The notes: generated by a model from the letters alone, not told the origin. DNA of 30,926 bases from an uncultured Clostridia bacterium (GCA_946186535.1 CAMHNT010000001.1:1-30926), one strand, 5' to 3'. Shown: positions 2,658 through 28,432, numbered from the stretch's first letter. Program-made: numbers and translations.

Positions 2658-2816
2658 TTTTTTATAAAAATGCCGGAGTGCGGCACTTTTAAGAAGTAAT
2701 ATATTGTTAAGGACTCCGTCCTTAAAACCTGCGAGGGCTCTGCCCTCGACCCGCCAGTACCCCAAGGGCACTTCCTTCGGGGCGCCTTTTGAAAAAAGCC
2801 GGGCAAAAACTTTAAC
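2658..2816 (+). repeat. Modular palindromic interspersed element, copy L1
   Basis: Head ttttataaaaatgccggagtgcggcacttttaagaagtaatatattgttaagg, gagggctctgccctc hairpin, gtaccccaagggcac module, terminal ttttgaaaaaagccgggcaaaaactttaa; matches 13113, 28433, 30802. Confidence 0.85.
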
Positions 2817-2954
2817 AGGCTTCGCAATACAAAAAGTAGGAAAAGTCCAAAAACTATAATAGAGAAAAAACCTGGCCGGGAAAAGTCCCTGTCCTCGGGC
2901 AGAGGACTTATGTCAAGAAATGAGTCCGGAATCGGGGCAAAAAAGAGGTGTTTT

Positions 2955-5554: not shown

Positions 5555-5850
5555 TTAAAGTTTCGCTCAAGCCTTTTCAAAGGCTTGCGGGGTGCATGGG
5601 GCAGAGCCCCTGCTCGCTCGTCGCAACGAGCGAAACTCCTTTATGCTCCACTCAGCGGATGAGTGACGTCCCAAGAGGCAGAGCCGAAGGCGATAGCCGA
5701 TTGGCTGACGGAACTTATGCTTTAGCTGTGGGGGCAGAATAAACTTTAACATGAGATAAAGTTCGGGTGGGGGCGAACCTGCTGACAGTGGTTCGCCCCC
5801 AGGGAAAAACTTACGGTTTTAACACTTTTAACAGCCAAACAAATTAATTA
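5555..5850 (-). repeat. Modular palindromic element, copy L2 (type-1 body)
   Basis: 5592-5800 is nearly identical to the reverse complement of 19507-19715; multiple hairpins, e.g. tgggggcgaacc-tgctgacagt-ggttcgccccca. Confidence 0.9.
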
Positions 5851-5853
5851 CTG

Positions 5854-5881
5854 CCCGACTGCGATTTCGCTTGCAGTCGGG
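5854..5881 (+). terminator. GC-rich hairpin, possible terminator upstream of lgt
   Basis: cccgactgc(ga)-loop-(tt)gcagtcggg followed by ttcggtcagttttt; the U-tract is displaced, so function is uncertain. Confidence 0.4.
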
Positions 5882-5917
5882 TTCGGTCAGTTTTTAAGAA
5901 AAGAAAGGATAATTAAA

Positions 5918-6739
5918 ATGTCATCATATCATGTTGAATTTCCGGGGCTCGGGTGGAGCTTTGACGTTTCTCCGATTGCCTTTTCGATAGGGGATTTTTC
6001 GATTTATTGGTACGGTATTATCATAGCGGCAGGCTTCATTCTTGCGGTAATATACTGTATGAGAATCGCAAAGAAGCACAACGTCAACGAGGACAAGCTT
6101 TTAAACTGCGTTATCGTAGGTCTTATAACCGCCATAATCGGCGCAAGGCTTTACTACGTTTTTTTTAGCTGGGACAGCTTTAAGAACGATCCGATAAAAA
6201 TACTTAACATACACCAGGGCGGACTGGCGATATACGGAGGTCTTATCGGCGCACTGATCGGAGGACTCACGGTTGCGAAGATTCAGAAGATGAAAATTCT
6301 CCCGATCCTTGACGTTGCGGTCCTCGGTTTTCTCATCGGTCAGGGAATAGGCCGCTGGGGAAATTTCATGAATCAGGAGGCTTTTGGTTCGGAAACCGAT
6401 CTTCCGTGGAGAATGGTTTCCGAGAGAACGGGCGGTTTCGGCGTTCACCCGTGCTTTTTCTATGAATCGGTATGGTGTCTGCTCGGGTTTGTGATCCTGC
6501 ATTTTGTTCGGAAAAAACATCTTAAGTATGACGGTCAGATATTCTATATGTATCTTGTCTGGTATGGTTTTGAGAGAAGCATAGTTGAGGGGCTGCGTTC
6601 GGACAGTCTCTATCTGCCGTTTGCGCCGATAAGAGTTTCTCAGCTTCTTTCTGCTGTTCTGTTTCTTACGGGTCTGGTTCTGCTCATCGTCAACAGGAAA
6701 AAATCTATTCCTGAAACTCATGATACTAATCCCTATTAA
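5918..6739 (+). CDS. lgt: Prolipoprotein diacylglyceryl transferase
   Basis: IYWYG, GARLYYV, GGLAIYGG, GQGIGRWGNFMNQEAFG, HPCFFYES. Confidence 0.95.
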   Translation: MSSYHVEFPGLGWSFDVSPIAFSIGDFSIYWYGIIIAAGFILAVIYCMRIAKKHNVNEDKLLNCVIVGLITAIIGARLYYVFFSWDSFKNDPIKILNIHQGGLAIYGGLIGALIGGLTVAKIQKMKILPILDVAVLGFLIGQGIGRWGNFMNQEAFGSETDLPWRMVSERTGGFGVHPCFFYESVWCLLGFVILHFVRKKHLKYDGQIFYMYLVWYGFERSIVEGLRSDSLYLPFAPIRVSQLLSAVLFLTGLVLLIVNRKKSIPETHDTNPY

Positions 6740-6820
6740 AAAATAGACTTTCTACTTTTTAATAGCACCGTAGATGCATCGGGATTGTATGAGACGTCAA
6801 TTGAGCTATAACGCGTTTCT

Positions 6821-6856
6821 TTCTCTAATAGAAAGTGTCTGCTTTCTATTAGAGAA
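6821..6856. other. Perfect 15-bp inverted repeat
   Basis: ttctctaatagaaag-tgtctg-ctttctattagagaa. Confidence 0.8.
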
Positions 6857-6890
6857 TAGTATGAAACCGAATAAAAATTCCATATCTACG

Positions 6891-6929
6891 CTTCAAGGGG
6901 ACGCTCAGTCAAAGAGCGTCCCCTTGAAG
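6891..6929. terminator. Perfect 16-bp hairpin between convergent lgt and the MarR gene
   Basis: cttcaaggggacgctc-agtcaaa-gagcgtccccttgaag; its core gggacgct..agcgtccc also occurs in repeats L4 and L6a. Confidence 0.6.
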
Positions 6930-6933
6930 TTTA

Positions 6934-7392
6934 TCACTGTTCTCCGCCGTTGATTTCCCTTAATGTACCGAGAACCCTATAGAGCGTTCTGTAAAACTGT
7001 ACCGCTTCTTCCGGTTCAAGCTTCATGCACTGTCCCATAGCCGTCGGAACTTCAGCCGCTCTTTCCTTCAGACCTTCGCCCTCCTCTGTTATTGAAACAA
7101 TCAGAGCTCTCTCGTCCTTTTTCGAACGGTTTCTTTCGACATAGCCCTTGCTTTCAAGCTTTTTCAGTACAGGCGTCAGAGTTCCGGAATCAAGGAACAG
7201 CACGTCTCCGAGTTCCCTGACGTTACAGCTCTTCTTCTCCCACATAACCATCATGACAATATACTGAGTATACGTCAGGTCGAGCTTATCAAGGTGCGGC
7301 TTATAGGCTCTTATCAGCTCCTTTGCACAGGCATAAAGCGGAAAGCAGAGCTGATTTTCAAGCTTCAGACAGTCGAATTTCAAGTCCTCCAT
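6934..7392 (-). CDS. MarR-family regulator, OhrR-like peroxide sensor
   Basis: LENQLCFPLY with the OhrR-type sensing Cys, LTYTQYIVMMVMWE, LDSGTLTPVLKKLE, DER; start ATG 7392 after SD AAGGGGAG. Confidence 0.85.
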   Translation of the reverse strand: MEDLKFDCLKLENQLCFPLYACAKELIRAYKPHLDKLDLTYTQYIVMMVMWEKKSCNVRELGDVLFLDSGTLTPVLKKLESKGYVERNRSKKDERALIVSITEEGEGLKERAAEVPTAMGQCMKLEPEEAVQFYRTLYRVLGTLREINGGEQ

Positions 7393-7411
7393 AGTTCTCC
7401 CCTTCAAATGT

Positions 7412-8515
7412 TCAGTCACTGTAATCCGAATCCATAATTATATCAAAAATATAATCAGGACAGACCTCATGGAGCTCCGACATTACAGCTTCCCTGACCT
7501 CATTCGCATCACATTCAAAATCAACCACCAAATCGAACATAGCGTATTTTATGTTTGCCTCGGCATAAAAACCGTGCATCTGCAAAATTTCCGGATGAGT
7601 CTTTACGACGTCTTCAACAAGTCTTTTTATCTTTCCGAACTCACCCGACGTATTCGAAGCGTAAACTCCGACAGTAAGAATTATTCCGAATTCAAACATA
7701 ATCTCCGCCGAGATTTTCCTTGAAAGCTTGTGAATTTCCCTTGCGGTCATATTGTCGTCAACTTCAATATGAGCCGTGCCTATTATCTTAGTCGGACCGT
7801 AGCTGTGAAGAGTGAGGTCATAGGTACCCTTGACCTCATCGTAGCCGTTTATTTTCTGTTTTATCTTCTCCGTCAGCTCGCTGTCGAACCTCACGCCGAT
7901 AATACTGTTCAGTGTATCGGTGAGGATTTCGACGCCGGCTTTTATGATAAAAAGAGAAATTATCGAGCCCATTATCCCCTCAAGGTTTAGCCCCCATATC
8001 ATTCCGACAAGTGCCGTTATCAGCGTTCCTGCCGAAAGAACCGCATCTGAAAACGCGTCGGTACCGCTTGCAATAAGCGACTGGGAGTTAAGCTTCTCAC
8101 CCATACCCTTTACATATTTTCCGCACAGAAGCTTTGCGGCGATTGCCGCAGCAATAACTATAATCGAAGCTATCGAATAGTCTGTTTCCTCAGGGTGGAA
8201 TATTTTTATCACCGACTCCTTAAGCGAGGTCAGACCGGCGAGAAGTGCAATTAAAGATATTGCAACAGCCGTAAGATATTCTATTCTTCCGTGACCGTAA
8301 GGGTGCTTTTTATCAGGTGCCTTCGCCGAAAGCTTGGTACCTACGATCGTTATCACCGAGGAAAGTGCGTCGCTCAGATTGTTGACTGCATCAAGCACAA
8401 TAGAAATCGAATTTGCGATAAGTCCTACCGCCATTTTGAAGGCAACCAGAACCACATTCACAGCAATTCCGATAACGCTTGTTCTTATGATTCTTCTGTT
8501 TCTTTCTGTTGTCAT
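7412..8515 (-). CDS. Cation diffusion facilitator (CDF) family transporter
   Basis: DAVNNLSDALSS, PDKKHPYGHGRIEY, TDAFSDA, YDLTLHSYGP, HIEVD; duplicated-looking C-terminal domain. Confidence 0.9.
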   Translation of the reverse strand: MTTERNRRIIRTSVIGIAVNVVLVAFKMAVGLIANSISIVLDAVNNLSDALSSVITIVGTKLSAKAPDKKHPYGHGRIEYLTAVAISLIALLAGLTSLKESVIKIFHPEETDYSIASIIVIAAAIAAKLLCGKYVKGMGEKLNSQSLIASGTDAFSDAVLSAGTLITALVGMIWGLNLEGIMGSIISLFIIKAGVEILTDTLNSIIGVRFDSELTEKIKQKINGYDEVKGTYDLTLHSYGPTKIIGTAHIEVDDNMTAREIHKLSRKISAEIMFEFGIILTVGVYASNTSGEFGKIKRLVEDVVKTHPEILQMHGFYAEANIKYAMFDLVVDFECDANEVREAVMSELHEVCPDYIFDIIMDSDYSD

Positions 8516-8581
8516 TTATTTGTTCAACACCCTTTTACCAATATTCTCAAAAAGCCTTATCCTCAAGACCCTTATGACATA

Positions 8582-8851
8582 TTATGCACCTTGTGCCGCT
8601 TTCTGTGCTTCGTAAGCTTCCCTTACCGCCTTAGCGAGCTGGTCACCGCAAGAAGTTGGACGTCTGCCGCATGTGATTCCCGTGAGCTTCGACTCGATTT
8701 CATCAACCGTCCAGCCGTCAACGAGAATCGGAATAGCCTTAAGATTGCCGTTGCATCCTCCGGTAAAAACAACGTTTGTAACAACGTCGCCGTTGATGTC
8801 AAGCTTTATCTCCGTAGAACACGTATTCTTCGTTTTGTAGATATATTCCAT
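8582..8851 (-). CDS. TIGR03905-type TSCPD-domain small Cys protein
   Basis: TCSTEI, FTGGCNGNLKAI, GITCGRRPTSCGDQLA pattern recognised from memory; SD AAGGAG lies inside the gpx end. Confidence 0.8.
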   Translation of the reverse strand: MEYIYKTKNTCSTEIKLDINGDVVTNVVFTGGCNGNLKAIPILVDGWTVDEIESKLTGITCGRRPTSCGDQLAKAVREAYEAQKAAQGA

Positions 8852-8852
8852 A

Positions 8853-9326
8853 TTATAACAACTCCTTAATTTTCGGGTCGATTGCCTCCGGCGTCACCGT
8901 CGGGCCAAAACGCTCAATAACATTTCCTTCCCTGTCAACGAGGAACTTCGTAAAATTCCACTTGATATTGTTTCCGAGAACTCCTTTTTTCTGCTCTTTT
9001 AGATATCTGTAGAGCGGCTCTGCGTCGTCGCCGTTTACGTTTATTTTTGAAAAAAGCCTGAACGTAATTCCGTATCTCGACTGACAGAAGCTTGCGATCT
9101 CCTCCTCCGTCCCCGGCGCCTGGTTCGCAAATTGGTTACATGGAAAATCAAGTATTTCGAATCCCTGAGAATTATACTTCTCGTACAAATCCTGCAGTCC
9201 GTCATACTGCGGAGTAAACCCACAGCCTGTTGCGGTGTTGACGATAAGCAGTACCTTTCCCTTATACTCAGCCATGCTCACATTGTTGCCCTTTGCGTCC
9301 TTAACAACAAAATCATAAATACCCAT
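8853..9326 (-). CDS. gpx: Glutathione peroxidase family protein (Cys type)
   Basis: LIVNTATGCGFTPQY, DFPCNQF, IKWNFTKFLVDREG; start ATG 9326 after SD AGGGAG. Confidence 0.93.
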   Translation of the reverse strand: MGIYDFVVKDAKGNNVSMAEYKGKVLLIVNTATGCGFTPQYDGLQDLYEKYNSQGFEILDFPCNQFANQAPGTEEEIASFCQSRYGITFRLFSKINVNGDDAEPLYRYLKEQKKGVLGNNIKWNFTKFLVDREGNVIERFGPTVTPEAIDPKIKELL

Positions 9327-9359
9327 ATATGTCACTCCCTGTACATAAATTTACAAGTG

Positions 9360-9419
9360 TACAATTAGATTGCACACAATCATTAACTAAATTGTACACA
9401 ATTAATTTTGTTTTGTCAA
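9360..9419 (-). promoter_or_regulatory. SigA promoter of gpx with overlapping OhrR-like operator boxes
   Basis: Minus strand TTGACA-17-TACAAT with an extended TG; TACAATT-A-GATTGCA at 9360-9374 resembles the Bacillus OhrR box TACAATT-N-AATTGTA; ATTGYACACAAT at 9369-9380 and 9391-9402. Confidence 0.7.
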
Positions 9420-9480
9420 CAGGATTTTTAAATATTCTCTGAGAAATTATTGCCAAATATTCATAGAATTTTTTGGCAAT

Positions 9481-9516
9481 AAAAATAACACTACCCCATT
9501 CCGGAAATAGTGTTAA
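9481..9516 (-). terminator. Probable terminator after the 57-aa ORF
   Basis: aacactatttc..ggggtagtgtt stem with G-U pairs followed by attttt. Confidence 0.45.
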
Positions 9517-9559
9517 CCGCTAAAATCCAATTTCAATTATTTTAAACCAAAAACATAGC

Positions 9560-9733
9560 TCATCCCAGAACCGTATAGGAAAAATCCTCCCACTTTAGCT
9601 CCGTGCCGACATCGATTTCATCGGGCAGAAGCGCAAGCGCAACAATCATCTCCTCGCTGTCATCAATGTCTGTTCTGACTAAATAAGCATAGTCGCCGTT
9701 AATTCTTTCGACTCTATAAAAAAACGGTCCCAT
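9560..9733 (-). CDS. 57-aa small protein absent from the ORF track, DUF3006-like pattern
   Basis: Hand translation MGPFFYRVERINGDYAYLVRTDIDDSEEMIVALALLPDEIDVGTELKWEDFSYTVLG*; SD AAAAGGTGAG. Confidence 0.8.
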   Translation of the reverse strand: MGPFFYRVERINGDYAYLVRTDIDDSEEMIVALALLPDEIDVGTELKWEDFSYTVLG

Positions 9734-9757
9734 ATCAGCTCACCTTTTAATTCTATA

Positions 9758-10168
9758 TTATTTTCTGTACTTTATGTTATTGTCAACGCACCACTTTACA
9801 GCTGCTTCTTCCGTAAATTCCTTGAGCTTGTACCCATAGTATATGTTGTTGTTTTCGGTATAAACTCTGAATGCATGGTCATACTGTTCTCTGTCCTTAA
9901 TCTTATCAAACATTTCCGACAGCTTTTTGTTTCTAAAGCTGTCGACATACATTCTGTCAAATTCATATTCATCAACGGAAAACGAGGGTATAATATTATT
10001 ATCAGCCAGCAGCACCTTAAGCTTTTCCTGGTCACTTGTATTATAACCAAATTCCCGAAGCTTTTCGGTAGTGTAAAATTCATATCGGTCTTTATCAAAC
10101 CAAAAGCTTATTTGCTTTGAGAAGCAATAGTTGTTATTCTTAAGGAGGGTATCTATTGAAATAAACAT
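9758..10168 (-). CDS. Hypothetical protein, C-terminus resembling UPF0158
   Basis: 136 aa from ATG 10168; ends EEAAVKWCVDNNIKYRK; low GC in sampled lines. Confidence 0.65.
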   Translation of the reverse strand: MFISIDTLLKNNNYCFSKQISFWFDKDRYEFYTTEKLREFGYNTSDQEKLKVLLADNNIIPSFSVDEYEFDRMYVDSFRNKKLSEMFDKIKDREQYDHAFRVYTENNNIYYGYKLKEFTEEAAVKWCVDNNIKYRK

Positions 10169-10207
10169 TGTCCTCAGACCCTTTCGCAAAAAACATAAAA
10201 ATATGCT

Positions 10208-10236
10208 AAAAAAAGACCTGCACAAAGCAAGTCTTT
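10208..10236 (-). terminator. Intrinsic terminator of tRNA-Leu copy 1
   Basis: aagacttgc-tttgt-gcaggtctt + T7 on the minus strand. Confidence 0.75.
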
Positions 10237-10242
10237 CAAAAG

Positions 10243-10324
10243 TGCGAGTGACGGGACTTGAACCCGTACGTCATACAACACACGCCCCTCAAACGTGCCT
10301 GTCTGCCAATTCCAGCACACTCGC
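10243..10324 (-). tRNA. tRNA-Leu(GAG), copy 1
   Basis: Acceptor GCGAGTG/CACTCGC, D loop GAATTGGCAGA, anticodon stem CACGT/GCGTG with loop TT-GAG-GG, long variable arm, T arm ACGGG-TTCAAGT-CCCGT; CCA not encoded. Confidence 0.96.
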
Positions 10325-10374
10325 ATATAAACTCTTTTCGTTCCCGACTTCATGTCGTTCACTCAACGAATAAT

Positions 10375-10403
10375 ATAATAACACATAATTTTGCTTTTGT
10401 CAA
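10375..10403 (-). promoter_or_regulatory. SigA promoter of tRNA-Leu copy 1
   Basis: TTGACA-17 bp-TATTAT. Confidence 0.75.
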
Positions 10404-10448
10404 CAGTTTTTCGAAAAATTTTTCCGAAAAATCAAATTTAAAAAAATA

Positions 10449-10474
10449 AAAAGAGCTACTAAAAGTAACTCTTT
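10449..10474 (-). terminator. Intrinsic terminator of tRNA-Leu copy 2
   Basis: aaagagttact-ttt-agtagctcttt followed by a T run on the minus strand. Confidence 0.7.
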
Positions 10475-10481
10475 CAAAAAG

Positions 10482-10563
10482 TGCGAGTGACGGGACTTGA
10501 ACCCGTACGTCATACAACACACGCCCCTCAAACGTGCCTGTCTGCCAATTCCAGCACACTCGC
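10482..10563 (-). tRNA. tRNA-Leu(GAG), copy 2, identical to copy 1
   Basis: Same cloverleaf; offset 239 bp. Confidence 0.96.
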
Positions 10564-10613
10564 ATATAAACTCTTTTCGTTCCCGACTTCATGTCGTTCA
10601 CTCAACGAATAAT

Positions 10614-10642
10614 ATAATAACACACATTTAAGATTTTGTCAA
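10614..10642 (-). promoter_or_regulatory. SigA promoter of tRNA-Leu copy 2
   Basis: TTGACA-17 bp-TATTAT; spacer differs from copy 1. Confidence 0.75.
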
Positions 10643-10691
10643 CCTTATTTTTCAAATTTTTTTATTTTTATAAAGAAATTTTTATTTAAAA

Positions 10692-10721
10692 AGGCGTCCG
10701 GCATAATTCATCCGGACGCCT
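10692..10721 (-). terminator. Terminator of the ABC operon
   Basis: aggcgtccgg-N10-ccggacgcct followed by a T run on the minus strand. Confidence 0.75.
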
Positions 10722-10728
10722 GAAATAT

Positions 10729-12375
10729 TCAGAAGCTATTCCAAATTCTCTTTCCATCGGTCGCAAGATAGAAAACTTCCAGCAAAACGAGAAGAAGAAA
10801 ATATATTATACATATTCCGTATGACCACAGAGACGAGAAATCTTCAAGATAAGCCGCCGGAACAATCGCAAGAACGAACGGAACCGCAGTAAAGAACATC
10901 GACAGAAGCAGCGTAAAAATAACGCTCAGGCTCTGTTTTATGACCGTTATCTCGTTGGTCCAGTCAAAACGAGGAATCTTCATGTTAACGCATATTCCGA
11001 GAAAACCGGAAAACAGACACGCAAGAATCGGAATAAATATTATAAACATAATATCAACCGATGTCAGGTCAAGCATTAATGCGCTCGCAACCGAAGTAAA
11101 AATAACTCCCGGAAGCGAAACTATCGGAGCGAGAAGAGCCTTCGCCAGAAAGACGTTCATCGGCTTAACGGGAGTGGATTTCAGCAGCCACATCGTTTTT
11201 CCTTCGAGAGAAATGCTCGGAGCGGTAACGTCGTTGATGGTACAGCACAGCGCAAGCGACGAACCGATCGCCAGAGCCATGAGGTTTGAGGAAGCGTCAG
11301 GGAACATTCTCGGAAGCCATTCAACTATAACGTTGCCTCGTGCGAGAATTCCCACGCCAAGCATGATAGACATAATCGTACTCATGCCGGCATTCATTAC
11401 GTAAGCAGGAATGCTGAAAAAATAACCGACTTCCTTTTTTATCAGCATAAGCTGTATATTCGTCTTTTTCATCGGTTTTTCTACGTATTTTTTCTTTTTC
11501 ATGCTTACCTTTCGTGTTACTATTTTGAGGAACTGTTTCGAAAGGAACAAAAATACCAGATATGTAAGAACCACCGTCAGCAGCACTATCGGAATCAGTC
11601 CGAGAACATTTCCGCCGCTTGACGCGGTTCCGTACCAATAAAGAATAATGACATATTTCCGCACGTCATCCGCAACCATATCAATGTTGTTCATCAGAAC
11701 GCCGAGTATATTTCCGAAATTCAATCCTACAACGGAAAGCAGAGCAATCATGAAAAATCCGAAAACAACCGAAAGCAGATTCTTGTTCGGAATTTTCTCC
11801 GAAATCTTTCCCGTTATGTATCCGAATACGCAGCTGAGCGCTGTAGCCAGAAGAGGAATCATAAGCGCCGAAATAATAAAGTACAGAAACGTAACAACAT
11901 TGAATCTGAAAAACAGTCCGTAAGCGAGCCCCACCGGAAAAAATATCAGATTGCTGTAAATAAAATTTAGAAAATAAAGCGCAAGCATTCTGCTCAGCAG
12001 AACGGACGAAGGTTTTATCGGCATGCTCAGAAGCAGGTCGTTGTCTTTCGATTCGAAGAGATACGACTGAGCGGCAAAAATCGTGCCGACAAGCGAAAAA
12101 ACAGTCGCACAGACAACCCCCATCGGGAAGTAAAGCCAGATGCATCTCTTGTAAAACATCTGGAATCCCATAACCATCGCAAGTCCGAAGGAAAATGCCA
12201 TCATGAGAATGAACGCAATCGCAATTATTCCGATGATTATTGCCGTTCCGACATTAAACCCCTCTCCCCTTTTCTCACGCCCTCGCATGAACGTCAGCAT
12301 TGACGAAATTCCGCCGGTTATTTTTATTTTAACAAGTTGGATTACCGTTTTCGTATTGGTTTTAGTCTTAGCCAT
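10729..12375 (-). CDS. ABC-2-type exporter permease, multi-TM
   Basis: Many hydrophobic helices; DNDLLLSMPI and SLEGKTMWLLKSTPV are typical; overlaps the ATPase stop. Confidence 0.85.
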   Translation of the reverse strand: MAKTKTNTKTVIQLVKIKITGGISSMLTFMRGREKRGEGFNVGTAIIIGIIAIAFILMMAFSFGLAMVMGFQMFYKRCIWLYFPMGVVCATVFSLVGTIFAAQSYLFESKDNDLLLSMPIKPSSVLLSRMLALYFLNFIYSNLIFFPVGLAYGLFFRFNVVTFLYFIISALMIPLLATALSCVFGYITGKISEKIPNKNLLSVVFGFFMIALLSVVGLNFGNILGVLMNNIDMVADDVRKYVIILYWYGTASSGGNVLGLIPIVLLTVVLTYLVFLFLSKQFLKIVTRKVSMKKKKYVEKPMKKTNIQLMLIKKEVGYFFSIPAYVMNAGMSTIMSIMLGVGILARGNVIVEWLPRMFPDASSNLMALAIGSSLALCCTINDVTAPSISLEGKTMWLLKSTPVKPMNVFLAKALLAPIVSLPGVIFTSVASALMLDLTSVDIMFIIFIPILACLFSGFLGICVNMKIPRFDWTNEITVIKQSLSVIFTLLLSMFFTAVPFVLAIVPAAYLEDFSSLWSYGICIIYFLLLVLLEVFYLATDGKRIWNSF

Positions 12376-13081
12376 CGTCTTCCTCCAGTTTCAGGAACAC
12401 GTCCTCAAGCGACGCGGCACCCTTTACCTCATCGGTTGTACCGCTGATGATGAGCTTTCCGTCACGGATAATAGCTATTTTGTCGCAGAGCTTTTCGGCG
12501 ACCTCAAGAACGTGAGTCGAAAAGAAAACAGCCGCACCTTCTCTGCACGCTTCCCTCATCTCCTCCTTCATTCTGTGGGAGGCGATAGGGTCAAGACCAA
12601 CGAACGGCTCGTCAAGAAGAACCAGCTTCGGCTTATGCATAAAAGCCGAAATCAGCGCAAGCTTCTGCTTCATTCCGTGGGAATAGCTGTTAATCGGCTG
12701 AGCCAGATCCTTCGTTATCCCGAACATATCCGCAAGCTTTTTTATCTGAGTTTCTCTCTCCTTGGGAGACATCTCATATATATCCGCAACAAAGTTCAGA
12801 TATTTTATCCCCGGCATAAAGTCATAGAGATCGGGGTTGTCGGGAAGATACGAAAGCCGCCTTTTGCATTCAAGCGGATCTTCCTTTATTGAAATTCCGT
12901 CAACAAAAATTTCTCCTTCATCAAATTCGAGAAGACCGCAGCAGGATTTTATCGTCGTGGTTTTTCCTGCTCCGTTGTGGCCTATAAAACCGTAAATCTC
13001 GCCGCTTTTGATTTCGAGGCTGAGATTGTCAACAGCGATTTTGTCACCGTATTTTTTAGTCAGATTCTGAATTTTAAGCAT
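12368..13081 (-). CDS. ABC transporter ATP-binding protein
   Basis: GHNGAGKTT Walker A, YSHGMKQK signature, LLDEP Walker B, STH switch. Confidence 0.95.
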   Translation of the reverse strand: MLKIQNLTKKYGDKIAVDNLSLEIKSGEIYGFIGHNGAGKTTTIKSCCGLLEFDEGEIFVDGISIKEDPLECKRRLSYLPDNPDLYDFMPGIKYLNFVADIYEMSPKERETQIKKLADMFGITKDLAQPINSYSHGMKQKLALISAFMHKPKLVLLDEPFVGLDPIASHRMKEEMREACREGAAVFFSTHVLEVAEKLCDKIAIIRDGKLIISGTTDEVKGAASLEDVFLKLEEDDG

Positions 13082-13112
13082 TTTTCAGCACAACCTTTTA
13101 AAGATTTTATTA

Positions 13113-13250
13113 GAGTAATATATAATTAAGGGCTTTGCCCTTAAAAAACCACGAGGGCTCTGCCCTCGACCCGCCAACTTTTAAAAAAGTTGGATCAAAA
13201 CTTTAACCGTCCTTTTTCAGACTTTTTGCGGTTTTAAAATTTGTTCGTTT
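13113..13250 (+). repeat. Modular palindromic element, copy L3 (short form)
   Basis: gagtaatatataattaagggctttgcccttaa, gagggctctgccctcgacccg, ccaacttttaaaaaagttgg, atcaaaactttaaccgtcc plus a degenerate tail. Confidence 0.85.
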
Positions 13251-13327
13251 TATGTATGAACATTCGTTCAGCTTTGATTCACTATAATAAATTTCCATAT
13301 AATTTGATTTAAATTTCCTTAAAATTT

Positions 13328-13357
13328 ATTATAACACAACAATATATATGTTGTAAA
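13328..13357 (-). promoter_or_regulatory. Candidate promoter of the ABC operon with an internal palindrome
   Basis: TTTACA-18-TATAAT with an extended TG; ACAACA-N7-TGTTGT at 13336-13354. Confidence 0.5.
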
Positions 13358-13386
13358 GAAGCTAAATGTTAAGAAAAATAAAACAA

Positions 13387-13413
13387 AAAGGCAGGAAAAA
13401 ACTTCCTGCCTTT
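13387..13413 (-). terminator. Terminator of the kinase gene
   Basis: aaaggcaggaa-aaaac-ttcctgccttt perfect 11-bp stem with a T run on the minus strand. Confidence 0.75.
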
Positions 13414-13442
13414 AATAAACAATATAATCAGCCGCTTGAATT

Positions 13443-15794: not shown

Positions 15795-15985
15795 AGTCCG
15801 ATCCTCCTTTTCCAAAAAATTCGATGCATTCAAACCCCGGTCGCTCTTATCTTTTCACCCTTCACCGTTCATTCTTCAATCAACAGTCCCGGGAAAATCC
15901 TTGTTCAGCTTCACCCAACCGAAGCATAAACCGGTTCGGAATGCATTTTTATACATCTAAAAAATATTACAATTCGGTAACTTAA

Positions 15986-16015
15986 ATTATATCATAAAGA
16001 TACCCTTTTTAGCAA
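15986..16015 (-). promoter_or_regulatory. Candidate promoter of the kinase gene, giving a ~185-nt leader
   Basis: TTGCTA-18-TATAAT with an extended TG. Confidence 0.55.
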
Positions 16016-16115
16016 TAGGAAAAATGTAAATAAAATACTATTTTATAACAAAATTCAATTTATTTTTAACAAACCATAATATCATATTATGCACTCGGGA
16101 TATAAGCTTTCAATC

Positions 16116-16154
16116 AAAAAAAAACAAGAGGCAATGCCAAATAGACACTGCCTC
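16116..16154 (-). terminator. Terminator after coaX
   Basis: gaggcagtgtc-tattt-ggcattgcctc + ttgttttttt. Confidence 0.75.
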
Positions 16155-16195
16155 GAAATTGTACTGTATAAAAATATGTTTCTATAAGTCTGAAA

Positions 16196-16963
16196 TTATT
16201 TTCTATTCTTGTTATAAATAATCATTAATCCCTTCAGCAAAAGCTGTTCGTCGATTATGATATTCCTTTTGCAGTGAGGAATAATCTTAGCAGCAAGTCC
16301 GCCCGTTGAAACGATCGTACATTTCTCGCCGAGCGACTCCTCGATGCGCTGAGTAACGCCGTCGATTCCTGCCGCCGAATAGTAGATTATGCCGCTCTTC
16401 ATGCACTCGACCGTGTTAGCTCCTATCACCTTTTTCGGAGCTTCAAGTCCGATTTTAGGAAGCTGAGACGTTCTGTGAGTAAGCGAATCGAGGGAGACTC
16501 TAAGACCCGGAATAATCATTCCTCCGAGATAGTTCTTGTCCTTGTCGATTACCGAAACGGTAGTCGCCGTTCCCATGTCGATGATAATGAGCGGTACGGG
16601 ATAGAGGTTTATTCCTGCCACAGCGTCTGCGACTCTGTCGCTTCCGAGCTGAGCCGGATTGTCGAGCATAATCTTAAGCCCCGTCTTGATTCCGGGACCG
16701 ACGGTCATAACCTCTGTGCCGGTGAGACGCTCAAGCGCCGCTTTCACGGTCTGGGTCACACTCGGAACAACAGACGAGATAATGCACCCCTCTATTTCGT
16801 CAACGTCAATACTATTTATTTCCAAAATACTTTTTATCGATATCACATATTCCAATGCCGTGTACTGCTGATTGGTAGAAAGCCGTTCGATGAAAAGAAC
16901 GTCATCGCCCTCGAAACAACCGATCACAATATTGGAATTTCCGATGTCAACTGCTAAAATCAT
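16196..16963 (-). CDS. coaX: Type III pantothenate kinase
   Basis: ILAVDIGNSN, SSVVP, LGSDR, IIDMGTATT, GGMIIPG, STGG; start set to ATG 16963. Confidence 0.95.
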   Translation of the reverse strand: MILAVDIGNSNIVIGCFEGDDVLFIERLSTNQQYTALEYVISIKSILEINSIDVDEIEGCIISSVVPSVTQTVKAALERLTGTEVMTVGPGIKTGLKIMLDNPAQLGSDRVADAVAGINLYPVPLIIIDMGTATTVSVIDKDKNYLGGMIIPGLRVSLDSLTHRTSQLPKIGLEAPKKVIGANTVECMKSGIIYYSAAGIDGVTQRIEESLGEKCTIVSTGGLAAKIIPHCKRNIIIDEQLLLKGLMIIYNKNRK

Positions 16964-17005
16964 ATTCCTACTCATTTCTGTTTTCAAAAATTATTAAAAC
17001 CGAAA

Positions 17006-17671
17006 TCACGCCGGAGTTTCGGCTGTTTTCTTACTTTTTTTCACAGGCATAATTCTCGGCATAGCCTTGATGAGAGCCTCGCCGATAACCGTAACGAGAA
17101 CCGCTGCAGCGATAGCCTCCGGAATACCCGATGCAGTAACCGTTCCCATAACAAGACCGAAAACTGCGCTGAGAGCAACCTCTTTCGCATCGGCATACTG
17201 CTGAGCGAACAGAACATAAATGCTGCCCATAACCATCACGGTGTTAACCATTGAACCTAAAAATCCCGTAACCGCAAGAGAAACAGGTGACGGAAGCTTT
17301 GTTTTCGAGAGAAGGATCCAGAGCCAGCCTGCGGCAACGCCGATAAGAATGCGGCATCCAACAGCGATCCAAACAGCCTTGATTCCGCCGACAATACCCG
17401 AAGTACTGAAAAACGGCGAGAAAGCAAAGGAAAGCAGAGTCGGCGCCATAGTGTTGCTGACAATCGAACAGATTCCGAAAACTCCGCCCAGAATCGCTCC
17501 TGCGAGAGGACCGAGCAGAATTGCTCCGATGATGACCGGGATGTGAACCGTTGTCGCCTTAATAATCGGAAGCTGAATCATTCCAAGTGGCGTATTCGCC
17601 AAAAGAACCACAATAGCTGCCATAAGTGCCACACTTACCATCCAACGAATGTCTTTTTGTTTACTATACAT
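17006..17671 (-). CDS. ECF transporter S-component, probably pantothenate-specific (PanT-like)
   Basis: TTVHIPVIIGAILLGP, NTVMVMG, PEAIAAA; specificity inferred from adjacency to coaX/coaBC. Confidence 0.8.
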   Translation of the reverse strand: MYSKQKDIRWMVSVALMAAIVVLLANTPLGMIQLPIIKATTVHIPVIIGAILLGPLAGAILGGVFGICSIVSNTMAPTLLSFAFSPFFSTSGIVGGIKAVWIAVGCRILIGVAAGWLWILLSKTKLPSPVSLAVTGFLGSMVNTVMVMGSIYVLFAQQYADAKEVALSAVFGLVMGTVTASGIPEAIAAAVLVTVIGEALIKAMPRIMPVKKSKKTAETPA

Positions 17672-17796
17672 TTTTTCCTCCTTGTTATCATTCCGATATG
17701 AAAATCGGATACAATACAGTACATTTGATATTATACCAATAAATTTAAAGAAAAGCTATAGCTTTATTGAAATTTTTCTGATAAAATAAAAATATA

Positions 17797-18196
17797 ATAA
17801 GAAATGAGCAAATTTGAAAATTACACAAAGAGGTTTGAAAGAGAACAGTTAAAGTTTTTGACGCACTTTTTTCAAAAAGTGCGCAGGATCCAAGGGCAGC
17901 GCCCTTGGTCGCCGTCCGTAGACGGCGAAACTCTCTTAGCGTTCAGCCCTTTGCAAGGGTGAATTTCAAAAACAGTCCGGCGGACTGTTTTTGAAAGAGG
18001 GACGCTTTGGCAGAAAGCGTCCCTTCCCCAAGGTAAAAAAACAAACTTTTCTCGCCGCTCCAAGGCGACTTGATCAAGTATATTTTTAAACTGTTCACAT
18101 GTTTTTTACTCATTCCGAAAACCTTCCCTTGGGTACAAAGCCCTTAACGATATATTACTCATAAAAAATGCCGCAATGCGGCATTTGTATAAAACC
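17797..18196 (-). repeat. Modular palindromic element, copy L4 (~400 bp, head to tail, type-2 body)
   Basis: Head at 18127-18196 (minus), body 17895-18030 matching 21885-21990, terminal hairpin gcactttttgaaaaaagtgc, tail atttgctcattt at 17802-17813. Confidence 0.8.
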
Positions 18197-18211
18197 ACGG
18201 AGGATTAAAAT

Positions 18212-19405
18212 ATGCTTAAAAATAAAACCATCGTTCTTGCGGTCAGCGGAAGCATTGCCGCCTACAAAATTGCCAACCTCGCGAGAATGTGCAAAAAACT
18301 CGGCGCCGATGTTCAGGTTCTCATGACTCAAAATGCCACAAATTTCATAAACCCCATCACTTTTGAAAGTCTCACCGGAAACAAGTGCCTTGTTGATACA
18401 TTCGACAGAAATTTTCAGTACAGCGTCGAGCATGTCGCTCTTGCGAAAAAATCCGATGTTGTAATGCTTGCCCCGGCGAGCGCAAACGTTATAGGAAAAA
18501 TCGCAAACGGCATTGCGGACGATATGCTTACCACAACCGTCATGGCGTGCCCGTGCAAAAAAATTGTGTCGCCTGCAATGAACCACAATATGTATCACAA
18601 TCCTATCGTACAGGACAACATCAAAAAGCTCGCTCATTTCGGATATGAGATAGTCGCTCCCGACAACGGCATGCTTGCAAACGGCGATATCGGAGACGGA
18701 AGAATGCCCGATGAAAGCGTTCTCCTACAGTATATTTTAAAAGAATGTGCATTTGAAAAGGACATGACAGGCGAGAAAGTTCTCGTTACGGCAGGCGCAA
18801 CCCGTGAGCCTATCGACCCTGTTCGCTTCATCACAAACCACTCTACGGGAAAAATGGGCTATGCTGTTGCAGAAAATGCAGCTCGCAGGGGTGCAGAGGT
18901 AACGCTCGTCACGGCGCACGCAGACATAGAACCACCTATGTTCGTAGACGTTGTAAAAGTATCAACTGCACAGGAGATGTTTGATGAGGTAACATCACGC
19001 TTCGAGGAAAGCACGATTGTTGTGAAGGCGGCGGCCGTTGCGGATTACCGTCCGAAAACCGTCGCAGACAATAAAATCAAAAAGTCGGACGGTGAAGCTG
19101 TTATCGAGCTTGAAAGAACGCCCGATATTCTGGCGGAGCTTGGCAGGAGAAAGAGCCGGCAGTTTCTTTGCGGTTTTTCCATGGAAACCGAAAATCTTGT
19201 GGAAAACTCAAGAGGAAAGCTTCTCCGGAAAAATCTTGACATGATAGCCGCAAACAATCTGAAAACCCGTGGCGCAGGGTTCGGAACAGACACAAACGTT
19301 GTTACCCTTATAACCCAGAACAACATAAAAGAGCTTGATATCATGAGCAAGCAGGAAGTCGCAGGGGCTATATTCGATGAGATTCTGAGAATAAAAAAAC
19401 AGTAA
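18212..19405 (+). CDS. coaBC: Bifunctional phosphopantothenoylcysteine decarboxylase/synthetase
   Basis: VSGSIAAYK, PASAN, PAMN, VTAGATREPIDPVRFITNHSTGKMG, AAVADY; SD GGAGG. Confidence 0.96.
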   Translation: MLKNKTIVLAVSGSIAAYKIANLARMCKKLGADVQVLMTQNATNFINPITFESLTGNKCLVDTFDRNFQYSVEHVALAKKSDVVMLAPASANVIGKIANGIADDMLTTTVMACPCKKIVSPAMNHNMYHNPIVQDNIKKLAHFGYEIVAPDNGMLANGDIGDGRMPDESVLLQYILKECAFEKDMTGEKVLVTAGATREPIDPVRFITNHSTGKMGYAVAENAARRGAEVTLVTAHADIEPPMFVDVVKVSTAQEMFDEVTSRFEESTIVVKAAAVADYRPKTVADNKIKKSDGEAVIELERTPDILAELGRRKSRQFLCGFSMETENLVENSRGKLLRKNLDMIAANNLKTRGAGFGTDTNVVTLITQNNIKELDIMSKQEVAGAIFDEILRIKKQ

Positions 19406-19416
19406 ATAGGCAAAAA

Positions 19417-19447
19417 TCAAAACCACCCATACAACGGGTGGTTTTGA
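19417..19447 (+). terminator. Hairpin after coaBC
   Basis: tcaaaaccaccc-atacaac-gggtggttttga 12-bp stem followed by ctttt. Confidence 0.65.
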
Positions 19448-19455
19448 CTTTTATA

Positions 19456-19782
19456 ATAAGTTAACCTGTTGTGCTATTAAAAGTGTTAAAACCATAAGAA
19501 ATTCTATGGGGGCGAACCACTGTCAGCAGGTTCGCCCCCACCCGAACTTTATCTCATGTTAAAGTTTATTCTGCCCCCACAGCTAAAGCATAAGTTCCGT
19601 CAGCCAATCGGCTATCGCCTTCGGCTCTGCCTCTTGGGACGTCACTCATCCGCTGAGTGGAGCATAGGGAATTTCGCTCGTTGCGACGAGCGAGCAGGGG
19701 CTCTGCCCCATGCACTGGTGTAAAACCACTAGGCTTCGCCGTCGCCCGCCAACTTTTGAAAAAGTTGGATCAAAACTTTAAT
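19456..19782 (+). repeat. Modular palindromic element, copy L5 (type-1 body)
   Basis: Inverted near-copy of 5592-5850; ends ccaacttttgaaaaagttggatcaaaactttt. Confidence 0.9.
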
Positions 19783-19810
19783 ATTGTTTTTAATAGCATA
19801 AAGCGTTAAG

Positions 19811-20584
19811 TTATGTATTAACCATAGCGTCCTTAACGCTCTTCACAAAATCATAAACATACGGTACGGAATCCTCTCCGTGCTCAGCAATGATTTTTAC
19901 AATAGCCGAGCCGATAATAATACCGTCCGCCTTCTTTGAAATATCGGCGGCCTGCTCGGGCGTTGAGATACCGAAACCTACTGCGACAGGGACGTCTGTG
20001 TTCTCTCTTACCTTCTTGACGATAGCTCCGATATCGGTCGTAATGCTGCTTCTCATGCCGGTAACGCCGAGCGACGAAACGCAGTAGATGAAGCCCTTTG
20101 CGTCCTTTGCGATAGTTGAAATTCTGTCGTCGGAAGTCGGTGCGATGAGAGAGATGAAATCAATTCCGTACTGCTCGCATACCGCCGCAAACTCTTCCTT
20201 CTCCTCAAAAGGCACGTCGGGAAGAATAATTCCGCTCATTCCGACCTCCGCCGAGGTTTTCACAAAACGCTCGATACCGTAGGAAAAAACAACGTTTGCA
20301 TACGTCATAAAAACAAGCGGTATGGACAGCTTCGGGCGGACTCTTCTTACCATATCGAATATCTTGTCTGTGGTAACTCCTGCCGACAATGCTCTGATGT
20401 TTGCTCCCTGAATTACGGGGCCCTCGGCTGTCGGGTCGGAGAAAGGAATACCAAGCTCAATCAGGTCTACTCCGCCTTTCTCCATTGTGAGGAGAATTTC
20501 CTCGGTTGTTTCGAGGTTCGGATCACCGCAGGTGATGAAAGATATAAATGCTTTTTTGTTGTTGAATGCGTCTGCCGTTCTCAT
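19811..20584 (-). CDS. trpA: Tryptophan synthase alpha chain
   Basis: [42 protein letters not shown]. Confidence 0.97.
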
Positions 20585-21765
20585 TCTGAAATGTCCTCCC
20601 CTCTGTATCTTGCGATAGCGGCACAGTCCTTGTCTCCTCTGCCCGAAACAGTTATAACCATGATCTGATCCTTTGACATTGTCGGCGCTATCTTCAGAGC
20701 GTGAGCTATTGCGTGCGAGCTTTCGATTGCCGGAATAATGCCCTCTGTTCTTGAAAGATATTCAAAAGCGTTAACTGCTTCGTCGTCCGTTACGGCAACG
20801 TATTCCGCTCTTCCGATGTCGTGCAGATATGCGTGCTCCGGACCTACTCCCGGATAGTCAAGACCTGCGGATATCGAATAAACCGGTGCGATCTGACCGT
20901 ATTCGTCCTGACAGAAATAGCTCTTCATGCCGTGGAAAATTCCGAGCTTGCCGGTTGCGATAGTTGCGGCTGTCTCGAATGTGTCGATTCCTCTTCCGGC
21001 AGCTTCACAGCCGATGAGACGAACTCCCTCGTCCTCAATAAAATTATAGAAAGTACCGATAGCGTTCGAGCCGCCGCCGACACATGCGAGCACAGCGTCG
21101 GGAAGTCTGCCTTCTTTTTCAAGACACTGTTCCTTGATTTCCTTCGAGATAACAGCCTGAAAATCTCTTACGATCGTCGGGAACGGATGAGGTCCCATGA
21201 CGGAACCGAGAACATAATGTGTGTCGGAGATTCTACTCGTCCACTCTCTCATGGCCTCGGAAACTGCGTCCTTAAGAGTCGCCGTGCCTGTTTTTACGGC
21301 GTTGACCTTTGCTCCGAGAAGGCGCATTTTGTATACGTTGAGCGCCTGACGCTTTGTGTCCTCCTCGCCCATGAACACTTCACATTCGAGTCCGAACAGC
21401 GCCGCCGCCGTAGCCGTTGCAACGCCGTGCTGACCTGCGCCTGTTTCGGCGATAACTCTTGTCTTTCCCATTTTCTTTGCGAGCAGAGCCTGTCCGAGAA
21501 CGTTGTTGATCTTGTGCGCACCTGTGTGATTAAGGTCCTCACGCTTAAGATAGATTTTCGCACCGCCTAAATCCTTTGTCATTTTCTCTGCATAGTAAAG
21601 ACGTGACGGTCTGCCTGCGTATTCGTTGAAAAGCGTTGAGAGCTCTCTGTTGAATTCGGGGTCGTTCTTGTAGTGATTATATGCCTCTTCAAGCTCTATA
21701 ACGGCATTCATAAGTGTTTCGGGGATATACTGTCCGCCGTGTATGCCGAATTTTCCGTTTGACAT
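20581..21765 (-). CDS. trpB: Tryptophan synthase beta chain
   Basis: [15 protein letters not shown] (PLP Lys), [27 protein letters not shown]. Confidence 0.98.
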
Positions 21766-21814
21766 AATTTTCAGCTCCTTTTTATTTACTCTTAATAATT
21801 CAAGTTTTTCACCA

Positions 21815-21990
21815 TTTAAAGTTTTGATCCAACTTTTTCAAAAGTTGGCGGATTCCAAAGGCAGAGCCTTTGGTCGGCGGTCGCAACCGCCGAAACACCT
21901 TAGCGTTCAGCCCTCTGCAAAGGGTGAAGCCGAAAACAGTCCGGGGGACTGTTTTCGGAGAGGGAACGCTCTGGCAGAGAGCGTTCCCTA
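21815..21990 (-). repeat. Modular palindromic element, copy L6a (type-2 body)
   Basis: Collinear with 17851-18030: terminal hairpin, ggcagagcc, cggcggt-cgca-accgccg, aacagtcc-ggactgtt, gggaacgctct-agagcgttccc. Confidence 0.88.
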
Positions 21991-22010
21991 AATCGGGAGA
22001 ACAAATTGCT

Positions 22011-22230
22011 ATAAGTTAACCTGTTGTGCAATTAAAAGTGTCTAAACCGTAAGTTTTTCCATGGGGGCGAACCACTGTCAGCAGGTTCGCCCCCACCCAA
22101 ACTTGGTTTCAGGTGAAAGTTTATTCTCCGCTGAGTGGAGAATAAAGGAGTTTAGCTCGTTGCGACGAGCGACCAAAGGCTCTGCCTTTGGAAACCGCAA
22201 GCCTTTGAAAAGGCTTGTGCGAAACTTTAA
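22011..22230 (+). repeat. Modular palindromic element, copy L6b (type-1 body lacking a 77-bp module)
   Basis: Collinear with 19456-19700 except for 19573-19649; ends caagcctttgaaaaggcttg..aaactttaa two bases from the trpF stop. Confidence 0.88.
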
Positions 22231-22232
22231 TA

Positions 22233-22838
22233 TTAACAGTTTCTTAATGTTTTAACAGCCTCAAAAATCTTCTCCCTATCCTTAACTCCGTCCGTTTCAA
22301 CCCCCGAGCTCAAATCAACAGCCCATGGGCTGACCTGCTTAACGGCTTTCGGAATGTTCTCGCTGTTCAGTCCTCCTGCCAGTATAAATTCACGGTTTAT
22401 CCCCGATACGACCGACCAGTCGAACGTCTTTCCGCAGCCTGTTCCGCTGTCGAGAAGAACCTTGTCGGCGGAGCTTTTTTCGGCTTTCAAAATATCATCG
22501 TCGGATTTTATAACGAACGCTTTCCAGACCTGTGTGTCGGGTATCAGCTTCCGAAGATTTTTTATATAATCCTCGTTCTCCGAACCGTGAAGCTGGACAA
22601 TATTTATTATACCGTTTTTCACAAGCTCTGCAATGCTCTCGATCGGATAATCGATAAAAACTCCAACAGTCGGAATATTTTTATCTATAAGACCTCTCAG
22701 GCGCTCTGCACGGTCATGATCGATATTTCGCTTGCTGAACGGAACGCCGATAATAAAACCTACATAATCGGGCTTTGCTTCGTTAACATATTCTGCGTCG
22801 ACATCACGTGAAAGACCGCATATTTTTATTTTTGCCAT
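22233..22838 (-). CDS. trpF: Phosphoribosylanthranilate isomerase
   Basis: KIKICGL, VQLHGSE, LLDSGTG, ILAGGLN, DLSSGVE. Confidence 0.95.
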   Translation of the reverse strand: MAKIKICGLSRDVDAEYVNEAKPDYVGFIIGVPFSKRNIDHDRAERLRGLIDKNIPTVGVFIDYPIESIAELVKNGIINIVQLHGSENEDYIKNLRKLIPDTQVWKAFVIKSDDDILKAEKSSADKVLLDSGTGCGKTFDWSVVSGINREFILAGGLNSENIPKAVKQVSPWAVDLSSGVETDGVKDREKIFEAVKTLRNC

Positions 22839-28057: not shown

Positions 28058-28360
28058 AAAAAAACCGTCCCCGACAGATAGTAAAAAATCTGTCAAGGAC
28101 GGATAATAATTCACCCGTGGTGCCACCTTGATTTACGGCGAAAAGCCGTACACTCTGCGAAATACTGACATATTTCCGGCTACTGACGTAAGCCAACACG
28201 TCATAGAATACTCGGCACTGTCCGCATTAAAAGCATATGCGGAAAAGCCTTTGACTATGCCCTCAGCGACCCATTTAATAAGCAGTAACCGCCCGGTTCC
28301 CAGCACCCCGAGCTCTCTGTGCGTTCTTTTCTTATTTTTATCTTCGCCTCAACGGTTTTA
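28058..28360 (-). promoter_or_regulatory. Trp T-box riboswitch leader with terminator
   Basis: Stem I elements AGAGAG and GGTGCTGGGAACC, specifier UGG at 28271-28273, T-box AAGGTGGCACCACGG at 28115-28129, terminator ccgtcc..gacagat..atctgtc..ggacgg + T7 at 28058-28102. Confidence 0.92.
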
Positions 28361-28378
28361 TGTTAAATTGTAATTTTT

Positions 28379-28407: not shown

Positions 28408-28432
28408 GACATTTTTTGAATATTTGTGCAAT

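Follow-up and report, generated by a model that had tools for sequence, protein, structure and literature searches.

Repetitive extragenic palindromes (REP) and bacterial interspersed mosaic elements (BIME) are short extragenic palindromes found in about 100 or more copies per genome, where they form mosaics with other motifs. A conserved single-stranded motif lies beside the foot of the hairpin, and the palindromy is kept by complementary changes, which has been ascribed to selection for complementary mutations (PMC2817692). They are mobilised by RAYTs, which in one study were found, like the REPs, only in Proteobacteria, and a feature of membership is a cognate Y1 gene lying between two inverted REPs (PMC2817692). 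The BOX elements of Streptococcus pneumoniae (boxA-boxB(n)-boxC; PMC3049150) are Gram-positive modular repeats with fixed end modules and a variable interior; they are strongly folding, intergenic and sometimes within operons, and no mobilising enzyme is known for them. Perfect inverted repeats are also produced by quasipalindrome correction, or short-range template switching between the arms of an inverted repeat, a documented mechanism (PMC8794818, PMC8604942, PMC7202029) that during replication makes perfect palindromes, matched indels and transversion pair-swaps without selection (PMC8794818, PMC8604942). Here we describe a family of repeats in a stretch of 30,926 nucleotides from an uncultured Clostridia bacterium (GCA_946186535.1 CAMHNT010000001.1:1-30926; the whole stretch analysed is called the window). 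Their conserved head, T-B-C-D, is a short motif (T) followed by three ordered hairpins (B, C and D), and the family is well supported as a further example of familiar bacterial repeats like REP/BIME or BOX, with a distinct sequence.

All the properties of REP/BIME given in the first sentences above, namely high copy number, extragenic position, mosaic arrangement, complementary changes and the motif beside the hairpin foot, are shared by the present family. It differs in its head, which is TAAAGTTT rather than GT(A/G)G, in its stems, which are perfect here and imperfect in REPs, and in its plan, an ordered chain of different hairpins with one polarity instead of alternating copies of one unit. 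It belongs moreover to a genus of Clostridia, has no RAYT associated with it, and a Y1 gene between two inverted copies was not found. The resemblance to BOX is architectural only, and a sequence relationship is not expected; the two defined ends of BOX (A and C) pair together, whereas the elements described here have one common head, alternative bodies and nested hairpin inserts. Template switching likewise leads to inverted repeats that are perfect, with matched indels and with 'compensatory' substitutions arising in one step, but it is a mutational process and not an element family, it leaves dispersal and conserved loops unexplained, and the loop inversions that are frequent with it were not seen here.

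The T-B-C-D hairpins are the head of mosaic palindromic repeats and not a dedicated RNA gene. The repeats string together short hairpin modules (A/T, B, C, D or E, F, G, H, J and others) and colonise intergenic spacers. A copy reads, in order, (R)TTAAAGTTT, a linker of 2-5 nt, hairpin B, GCGG or GCAG, hairpin C, hairpin D and AAAC. Exact pattern searches placed six B hairpins in the window (strand of the match in brackets), with the stem CAAGCCTTT..AAAGGCTTG at 5568-5587(-) and 22198-22217(+), the stem CCAACTTTT..AAAAGTTGG at 13174-13193(+, AA centre), 19749-19768(+) and 21829-21848(-), and the stem GCACTTTTT..AAAAAGTGC at 17863-17882(-); the patterns had zero matches in shuffled sequence. These are the positions and the three stem sequences given by an earlier, sequence-only reading of the window, and direct reading of the copies agreed also with its account of C (a constant core in a variable outer stem) and D (a 7-bp stem with a CGCA or CGTA loop), apart from the D of one element, L6b, in which the outermost pair is mismatched (CGCTCGT/ACGAGCT), a detail absent from that account. 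The same reading placed the three hairpins at the end of the element. TTAAAGTTT is not always that end, as many copies run on beyond it with one of several conserved modules.

The variability of hairpin B was followed in 68 genome copies picked by TAAAGTTT and the core of C alone, pairing not being a criterion. B is a perfect stem of at least 9 bp in 58 of the 68, with at least 15 stem haplotypes; among the imperfect ones, eight are split by an inserted module of 27-29 nt and only one or two have a point mismatch. Hairpin D occurs as five perfect haplotypes (n = 36, of which 35 have the CGCA loop and 1 CGTA, then 19, 1, 1 and 1), and the outer stem of C as six types together with a handful of one-position hybrids between types. 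The types of B, C and D are found in many combinations, and this free assortment indicates that the modules recombine or are assembled independently. After C, the chain continues through D or through hairpin E (TTAAGGGC-NNN-GCCCTTAA) and then into alternative bodies, the far end of type 1 being ...ACAGGTTAAnTTA; small modules interrupt the arms of B and H and also occur between B and C. Covariation extends to hairpins G and H in 23 full type-2 elements. Hairpin G, T-NNN-AAAACAGTCCGG-N-GGACTGTTTT-N'N'N'-A, is present at 17964-17996 and 21929-21961 in the window and in 41 copies in the genome; its inner stem is constant, its central loop letter varies freely (T, C or G), and its outer triplet has at least 12 haplotypes, perfectly complementary in 40 of the 41. 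The genome contains four head-out doublets of 350-540 bp, including one between trpF and trpB, and since their make-ups are all different they are independent juxtapositions and not one transposing unit.

The window is the entire longest contig of a Clostridia metagenome-assembled genome (MAG) of 2.15 Mb in 306 contigs with 43% G+C, and the DNA and RNA runs that contain this contig are bovine gut samples. Its genes are housekeeping genes (Sua5, an M16 peptidase pair, lgt, a PASTA kinase, coaX, coaBC and the trp operon), and ten of its intergenic stretches recur 10 to 100 times elsewhere in the genome. Scanning the genome for TAAAGTTT plus a palindrome gave ~80 heads, and a looser scan gave at least 108 T-B units, of which 105 lie between genes according to our own gene calls based on open reading frames (ORFs). 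A covariance model built from the 39-copy head alignment described below, with at most 150 candidates per genome scored, gave at least 142 matches in the window genome and at least ~1,100 in total, in 21 of the 23 genomes of the genus. BLAST found no copies in 12 other sampled families of the order, and plasmid and phage collections held nothing similar to the T-B-C-D repeats. In a separate index of other genomes, none had sequence words in common with the family. The whole window had no Rfam match at the gathering score; positions 17700-22300, searched at E ≤ 1, had only a chance-level small RNA match, outside the elements. The repeat family is genus-specific, abundant and almost wholly intergenic. 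It occupies about 5-10% of intergenic space, and many contigs end inside its copies, so that the assembly is broken by them.

The first alignment (A1) comprised 24 complete T-B-C-D heads of the window genome and 15 from ten other species, that is, 39 copies from 11 genomes; it omits copies with an interrupted B, and its cell counts are inflated by copies related through descent. Pairing is found in 98.6% of its 925 stem cells. Both-sided change occurs in 13 of the 25 pairs, and there are 127 double-changed cells against a single one-sided change, a G-U. The covariation score is 0.379 compared with 0.133 for shuffled alignments (reached in 0 of 500) and 0.01-0.13 when the partners are slid by 1-3 columns, and RNAalifold independently predicts the identical three helices. 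A second alignment, of the 38 best model matches from 19 genomes, was 98.5% paired with 17 of 24 pairs double-changed, figures biased toward pairing by the fit to the covariance model. Three copies fold at z = -5.5 to -7.5 relative to shuffles, with the two strands within 0.2 kcal/mol; as a 2-nt loop is sterically unfeasible, the folded form of B is an 8-bp stem closed by a loop of 4 nt. The claim of the sequence-only reading that the stems change in sequence while pairing is maintained was thus upheld on many copies, by the score and by the scarcity of point mismatches in B.

The mean diversity of paired columns (0.22) is close to that of unpaired columns (0.24), so change is not slow in the stems but comes in pairs. 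This also sustains the earlier view that neutral decay is not at work, since the stems are as variable as the linkers and yet their changes are almost always matched on the opposite arm. Conservation is far higher in the loops (AGA/AGC, CGCA), the AAA tail and the T motif than in linkers and neighbouring stems, with a diversity of 0-0.15 in the D loop compared with 0.45-0.55 in the inner stem of D. The lengths of T/A runs are equal in the two arms (3/3, 4/4, 5/5, 7/7). Many of the single-step pair swaps are transversions (CAAGC/CCAGC, CCAGC/CCATC, GCAC/GCCC), for which no passage through a wobble pair is possible. No loop inversion was seen among the listed B, C and D copies, the polarity being always TC, AGA/AGC and CGCA. 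Where the sequence-only reading had concluded that selection acts on single-stranded DNA or RNA structure, its interpretation is partly supported. Pairing is actively kept, in the form of perfect DNA palindromes, and the conserved loops and AAA tail favour some selection, but selection is only one of two processes that fit, arm-to-arm copying being the other. The comparison of G-U with C-A asymmetry, suggested as a means of choosing the functional strand, proved uninformative with one G-U in the 925 cells and few, symmetric mismatches.

The copies in the window are as follows, each with the position of its parts.

5555-5848, plus strand: L2, type 1, with repeat coverage over 5555-5848. Head with TTAAAGTTT 5555-5563, B 5568-5587, C 5594-5613 (AGA loop, one bulged T), D 5615-5632 (CGCA) and AAAC 5633-5636; a body of ~210 bp follows the head and terminates in ...AATTAATTA.
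13104-13254, minus strand: L3, type 3, within the 5' untranslated region belonging to an ABC-transporter gene at 12368-13081(-). Minus-strand parts are module P 13207-13254, AAACTTTAA 13198-13206, B 13174-13193 (AA centre), C 13152-13168 and hairpin E (TTAAGGGC-TTT-GCCCTTAA) 13126-13144; there is no hairpin D.
17802-18195, plus strand: L4, type 2 with extra modules, between the coaBC promoter region and start codon. Parts are module P 17802-17848, TTAAAGTTT 17849-17857, B 17863-17882, C 17890-17908 (AGC), D 17910-17927 (CGTA) and AAAC 17928-17931; then hairpin F, G 17964-17996 (terminator-like), H 17999-18023, module I and, last, terminator-like J 18149-18195.
19457-19781, minus strand: L5, type 1, inverted, between the convergent coaBC and trpA, with ~97% identity to L2 across ~210 bp. 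Parts are AAACTTTAA 19773-19781, B 19749-19768, an extra module of ~35 nt 19716-19747, C 19694-19714, D 19675-19692 and the body to 19457.
21816-21988, plus strand: L6a, type 2, in the trp operon between trpF and trpB. Parts are TTAAAGTTT 21816-21824, B 21829-21848, C 21855-21873, D 21875-21892 (CGGCGGT/ACCGCCG), AAAC 21893-21896, then F, G and H.
22012-22230, minus strand: L6b, type 1 without the 77-bp block, head-out doublet partner of L6a. Parts are AAACTTTAA 22222-22230, B 22198-22217, C 22173-22191 and D 22154-22171 (outermost pair mismatched).
2659-2823, minus strand: further copy, type 3, with terminator-like J, E, C, B split by the 27-29-nt module X (2757-2783), AAACTTTAA 2807-2815 and flank CAGGCTTCGC.
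28428-28655, minus strand: further copy, type 3, containing module X together with additional inserts, located between a CDP-alcohol phosphatidyltransferase gene and trpE.
29291-29372, minus strand: minimal copy consisting only of module P, hairpin B and, as the T motif, the variant AAACTGTAA; the start codon at 29273 follows 17 nt downstream.
30802-30919, plus strand: partial copy of modules J, E, C and X, reaching the contig end.

Some further features of the head and its flanks were observed in these and other copies. TAAAGTTT and the CGC linker are complementary to the 3' arm of D and the AAAC tail (AAGTTTCGCTC / GAGCGAAACT; 5557-5567 with 5626-5637 in the window), and in the minimum-energy fold of L2 this AAGTTTCGCTC/GAGCGAAACT helix closes the whole head and D is not formed. 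Across copies, the closing helix of TAAAGTTT(CGC) with (GCG)AAAC(T) has only 4-7 bp, shows no covariation and contains a G:T in 11 of 39. The loops of the T-to-B strand are purine-rich throughout. The heptamer GCGAAGC folds into a DNA mini-hairpin of exceptional stability; at distances of up to 200 nt from T-B units it is found 56 times on the T-to-B strand and 2 times on the other, at the flank AGCGAAGCC, in the loop of hairpin E and in inserted modules. The outward B-T end resembles a promoter (TTGAAA-17-TAATAT) when the flank starts with TAT, a consensus match only, as at 19756-19785 and 22205-22234; the promoter-like ends of both these window copies point antisense, into trpA and trpF.

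Comparison of orthologous spacers shows how recently the copies were gained or lost. The trpF-trpB spacer is 467 bp here and ~10 bp in the closest relatives, the genus genomes G008 and G002 (95% TrpB identity); the spacer between the M16 peptidase gene and lgt, the site of L2, is 393 bp here and ~10 bp in the same two genomes; and the segment of ~395 bp that separates the coaBC promoter region from the start codon, the site of L4, is absent from G002, G005 and G033. Differences of ~10 bp against 390-470 bp imply that the elements moved or were lost recently. The same spacers hold different family members in G016 and G006, where they were colonised independently. Exact-protein look-ups found one other sample with the same 467-bp trpF-trpB spacer, the other contigs ending at the repeat. 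The family is modular with free combination, has undergone recent gain or loss at orthologous sites, and its stems stay perfect palindromes while their sequence drifts.

Candidate partner enzymes were searched for in the genus. The Y1 transposase (PF01797) had no match in the window genome, which is 89% complete; it occurs in 4-5 of the 23 genus genomes, in none of them with T-B/C/E motifs adjoining, and is absent from the repeat-richest genomes (G008, G005, G004 and G003). An IS110 partner was rejected, these genes being present in 3 of 23 genomes and unrelated to copy number. TnpB-type domains were not found in the window genome. Genes for Avd-like four-helix-bundle proteins (PF05635) score over the cut-off in 10 of the 23 genus genomes and in 1 of 14 controls, and one T-B copy lies, coincidentally, ~400 bp from such a gene in the window genome (G000:C60:2668-2916); an Avd/23S-rRNA-IVS gene as the partner was rejected, as T-B units flank none of 10 loci.

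The hairpins could in principle act in the transcripts that cross them, as mRNA stabilisers, processing sites, attenuators or terminators, with host selection on RNA folding keeping the stems. Elements are indeed found within transcription units (in the trp operon as well as in 5' leaders, those of coaBC and the ABC-transporter gene), modules G and J resemble bidirectional terminators by eye, and metatranscriptome contigs include the repeats. A terminator scan, however, called neither G nor J, nor did it call B, C or D, which have no T-run. The depth of the repeats in RNA libraries scales as it does in DNA libraries, from contigs that have no strand information (two metatranscriptome and two metagenome runs, as short Logan contigs that break at repeats). 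The orientation of the head with respect to flanking genes is unbiased, 24 copies in co-directional spacers lying with transcription and 31 against it, with 8 copies in convergent and 6 in divergent spacers, and it is equally unbiased with respect to local GC skew (49 to 46). G-U pairs hardly occur, and searches of Rfam gave no match. Taken together, the few wobble pairs, the folding of both strands, the unbiased orientation and the lack of an Rfam match disfavour a strand-specific RNA and favour perfect palindromes at the level of DNA. A strand-specific RNA is thus unlikely, and we regard function at the RNA level as improbable in general.

The explanation that we rank first, tentatively and as somewhat short of an even chance, is that T-B-C-D is the conserved head of genus-specific, non-coding, non-autonomous mosaic repeats whose propagation depends on structure and is helped by copying between arms. 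A trans-acting machinery would copy the elements by reading DNA folded as a single strand or as a cruciform; the conserved unpaired positions (TAAAGTTT, TC at the centre of B, AGA/AGC and CGCA in the loops of C and D, and the AAA tail) would make sequence-specific contacts with it, while the stems would be sequence-free spacers needing pairing only, and propagation would therefore be limited to well-paired copies. Resident copies are probably kept perfect in part by copying between arms during replication. The conserved loops, AAA tail and T motif, and the loops that are never inverted, fit a folded strand being recognised by its fixed unpaired letters; the matched run lengths, the transversion swaps and the few intermediates fit one-step template switching from arm to arm. 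Copying alone comes second and is possible but rather unlikely: template switching would copy or revert changes from one arm to the other, leaving stems perfect with no structural selection, and the repeats would spread and persist for unrelated reasons. The 127 double-sided changes against one G-U, the equal run lengths, the many transversion swaps, the 40 of 41 perfect triplets among at least 12 haplotypes of hairpin G, and a stem variability equal to that of the linkers all agree with this, as does the documentation of the mechanism itself. It does not predict, as a purely neutral process, the far higher conservation of the loops and AAA tail, its hallmark of loop inversion is missing among the listed B, C and D copies, and the spread to about 100 sites per genome is left unexplained. 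Several points weigh against structure-dependent propagation in turn. Mismatched intermediates are nearly absent in more than 100 individually dispensable copies, which is hard to achieve by selection alone, and the triplets of hairpin G, hypervariable yet matched, look more like the product of a copying process. No mobilising enzyme was found among the families searched (Y1, IS110 and, in the window genome, TnpB-type), and at the three orthologous spacers an exact empty site or target duplication is unreadable, the flanks being too diverged. All the genomes are fragmented MAGs, in which transposases and full-length elements may be unassembled. Descent from a DDE-type insertion sequence, as classical miniature inverted-repeat transposable elements that are its deletion derivatives, moved by cut-and-paste through terminal inverted repeats and with incidental internal hairpins, is quite improbable. 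Type-1 borders both end in T(T)A (TTAAAGTTT... and ...GTTAAnTTA), compatible with a TA or TTA target duplication, and the four head-out doublets would suit it; but most elements have one head and a different far end, and do not carry terminal inverted repeats on the two sides, no two of the four doublets are made up alike, many copies extend past TTAAAGTTT into other conserved modules, and no parent insertion sequence was seen in genus-genome searches that covered the Y1 and IS110 families. Least probable of all, and very much so, is a true REP/BIME system with a RAYT (Y1) transposase left unassembled in the MAGs. High-copy extragenic palindromes, a conserved motif 5' of the hairpin, a mosaic arrangement and palindromy likewise kept through complementary changes (PMC2817692) speak for it. 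The conserved motif, however, is (R)TTAAAGTTT with its 2-5-nt linker and no GT(A/G)G head, Y1_Tnp is lacking in the window and the richest genomes and the Y1 genes of the genus are not flanked by repeats (absence from MAGs not being proof), and the study cited for REPs found both RAYTs and REPs in Proteobacteria only (PMC2817692). A more speculative idea, to which we give little credence, is that rumen and gut Clostridia share a RAYT-independent 'hairpin accretion', in which existing hairpins would receive new ones within their arms and each stem would be rewritten by copying one arm from the other. If true, this would give rise to segments that vary strongly while staying perfectly complementary, the outer triplet of hairpin G being an example, and would amount either to mobile DNA of a new class or to an activity dedicated to copying palindromes, and not to ordinary selection or replication slippage.

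Repeats within essential transcription units, such as the trp operon and the coaBC leader, can rewire expression, and in rumen MAGs they can mislead the annotation of promoters, terminators and small RNAs. With at least ~1,100 copies in 21 species, the family offers clean natural data which show that 'compensatory covariation' alone is no proof of a selected RNA fold; perfect DNA palindromes free of wobble pairs yield the same signal, which calls for caution in RNA discovery based on covariation.

The window also contains features that have no relation to the hairpin repeats. A second family of repeats is found at 2830-2945 and at about 100 sites in the genome (for example C72:7020-7280 and C38:4930-5190). 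Its unit of ~75 nt (AAACCCTGACCGGTAAAAGTCC...CCTCGGGCGATGGCTTATGTCAAGAATGTCTCCGGAATCGGGGTAAAAAA), often in 2-4 tandem copies and with no match in Rfam, is usually preceded by ...GAAAAGTCCAA..AGT..GATAGAG, and the ribosome-binding site and start codon of unrelated genes lie ~10-20 nt after it. The peptidase ORF called at 2910-4250 begins inside this repeat, and from its sequence the true start is probably the ATG near 2955. In the trpE leader (28128-28420), no T-box was called by Rfam over the whole window at the gathering score; by eye, the trpF-trpB sequence of genomes G006 and G015 (loci L096 and L101) looks like a T-box. A repeat of ~150 bp at 6720-6875, just downstream of lgt, has about 10 copies in the genome. 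Two tRNA-Leu(GAG) genes on the minus strand (10242-10324 and 10481-10563), 239 bp apart, lie in a direct repeat of 186 bp with 94% identity.

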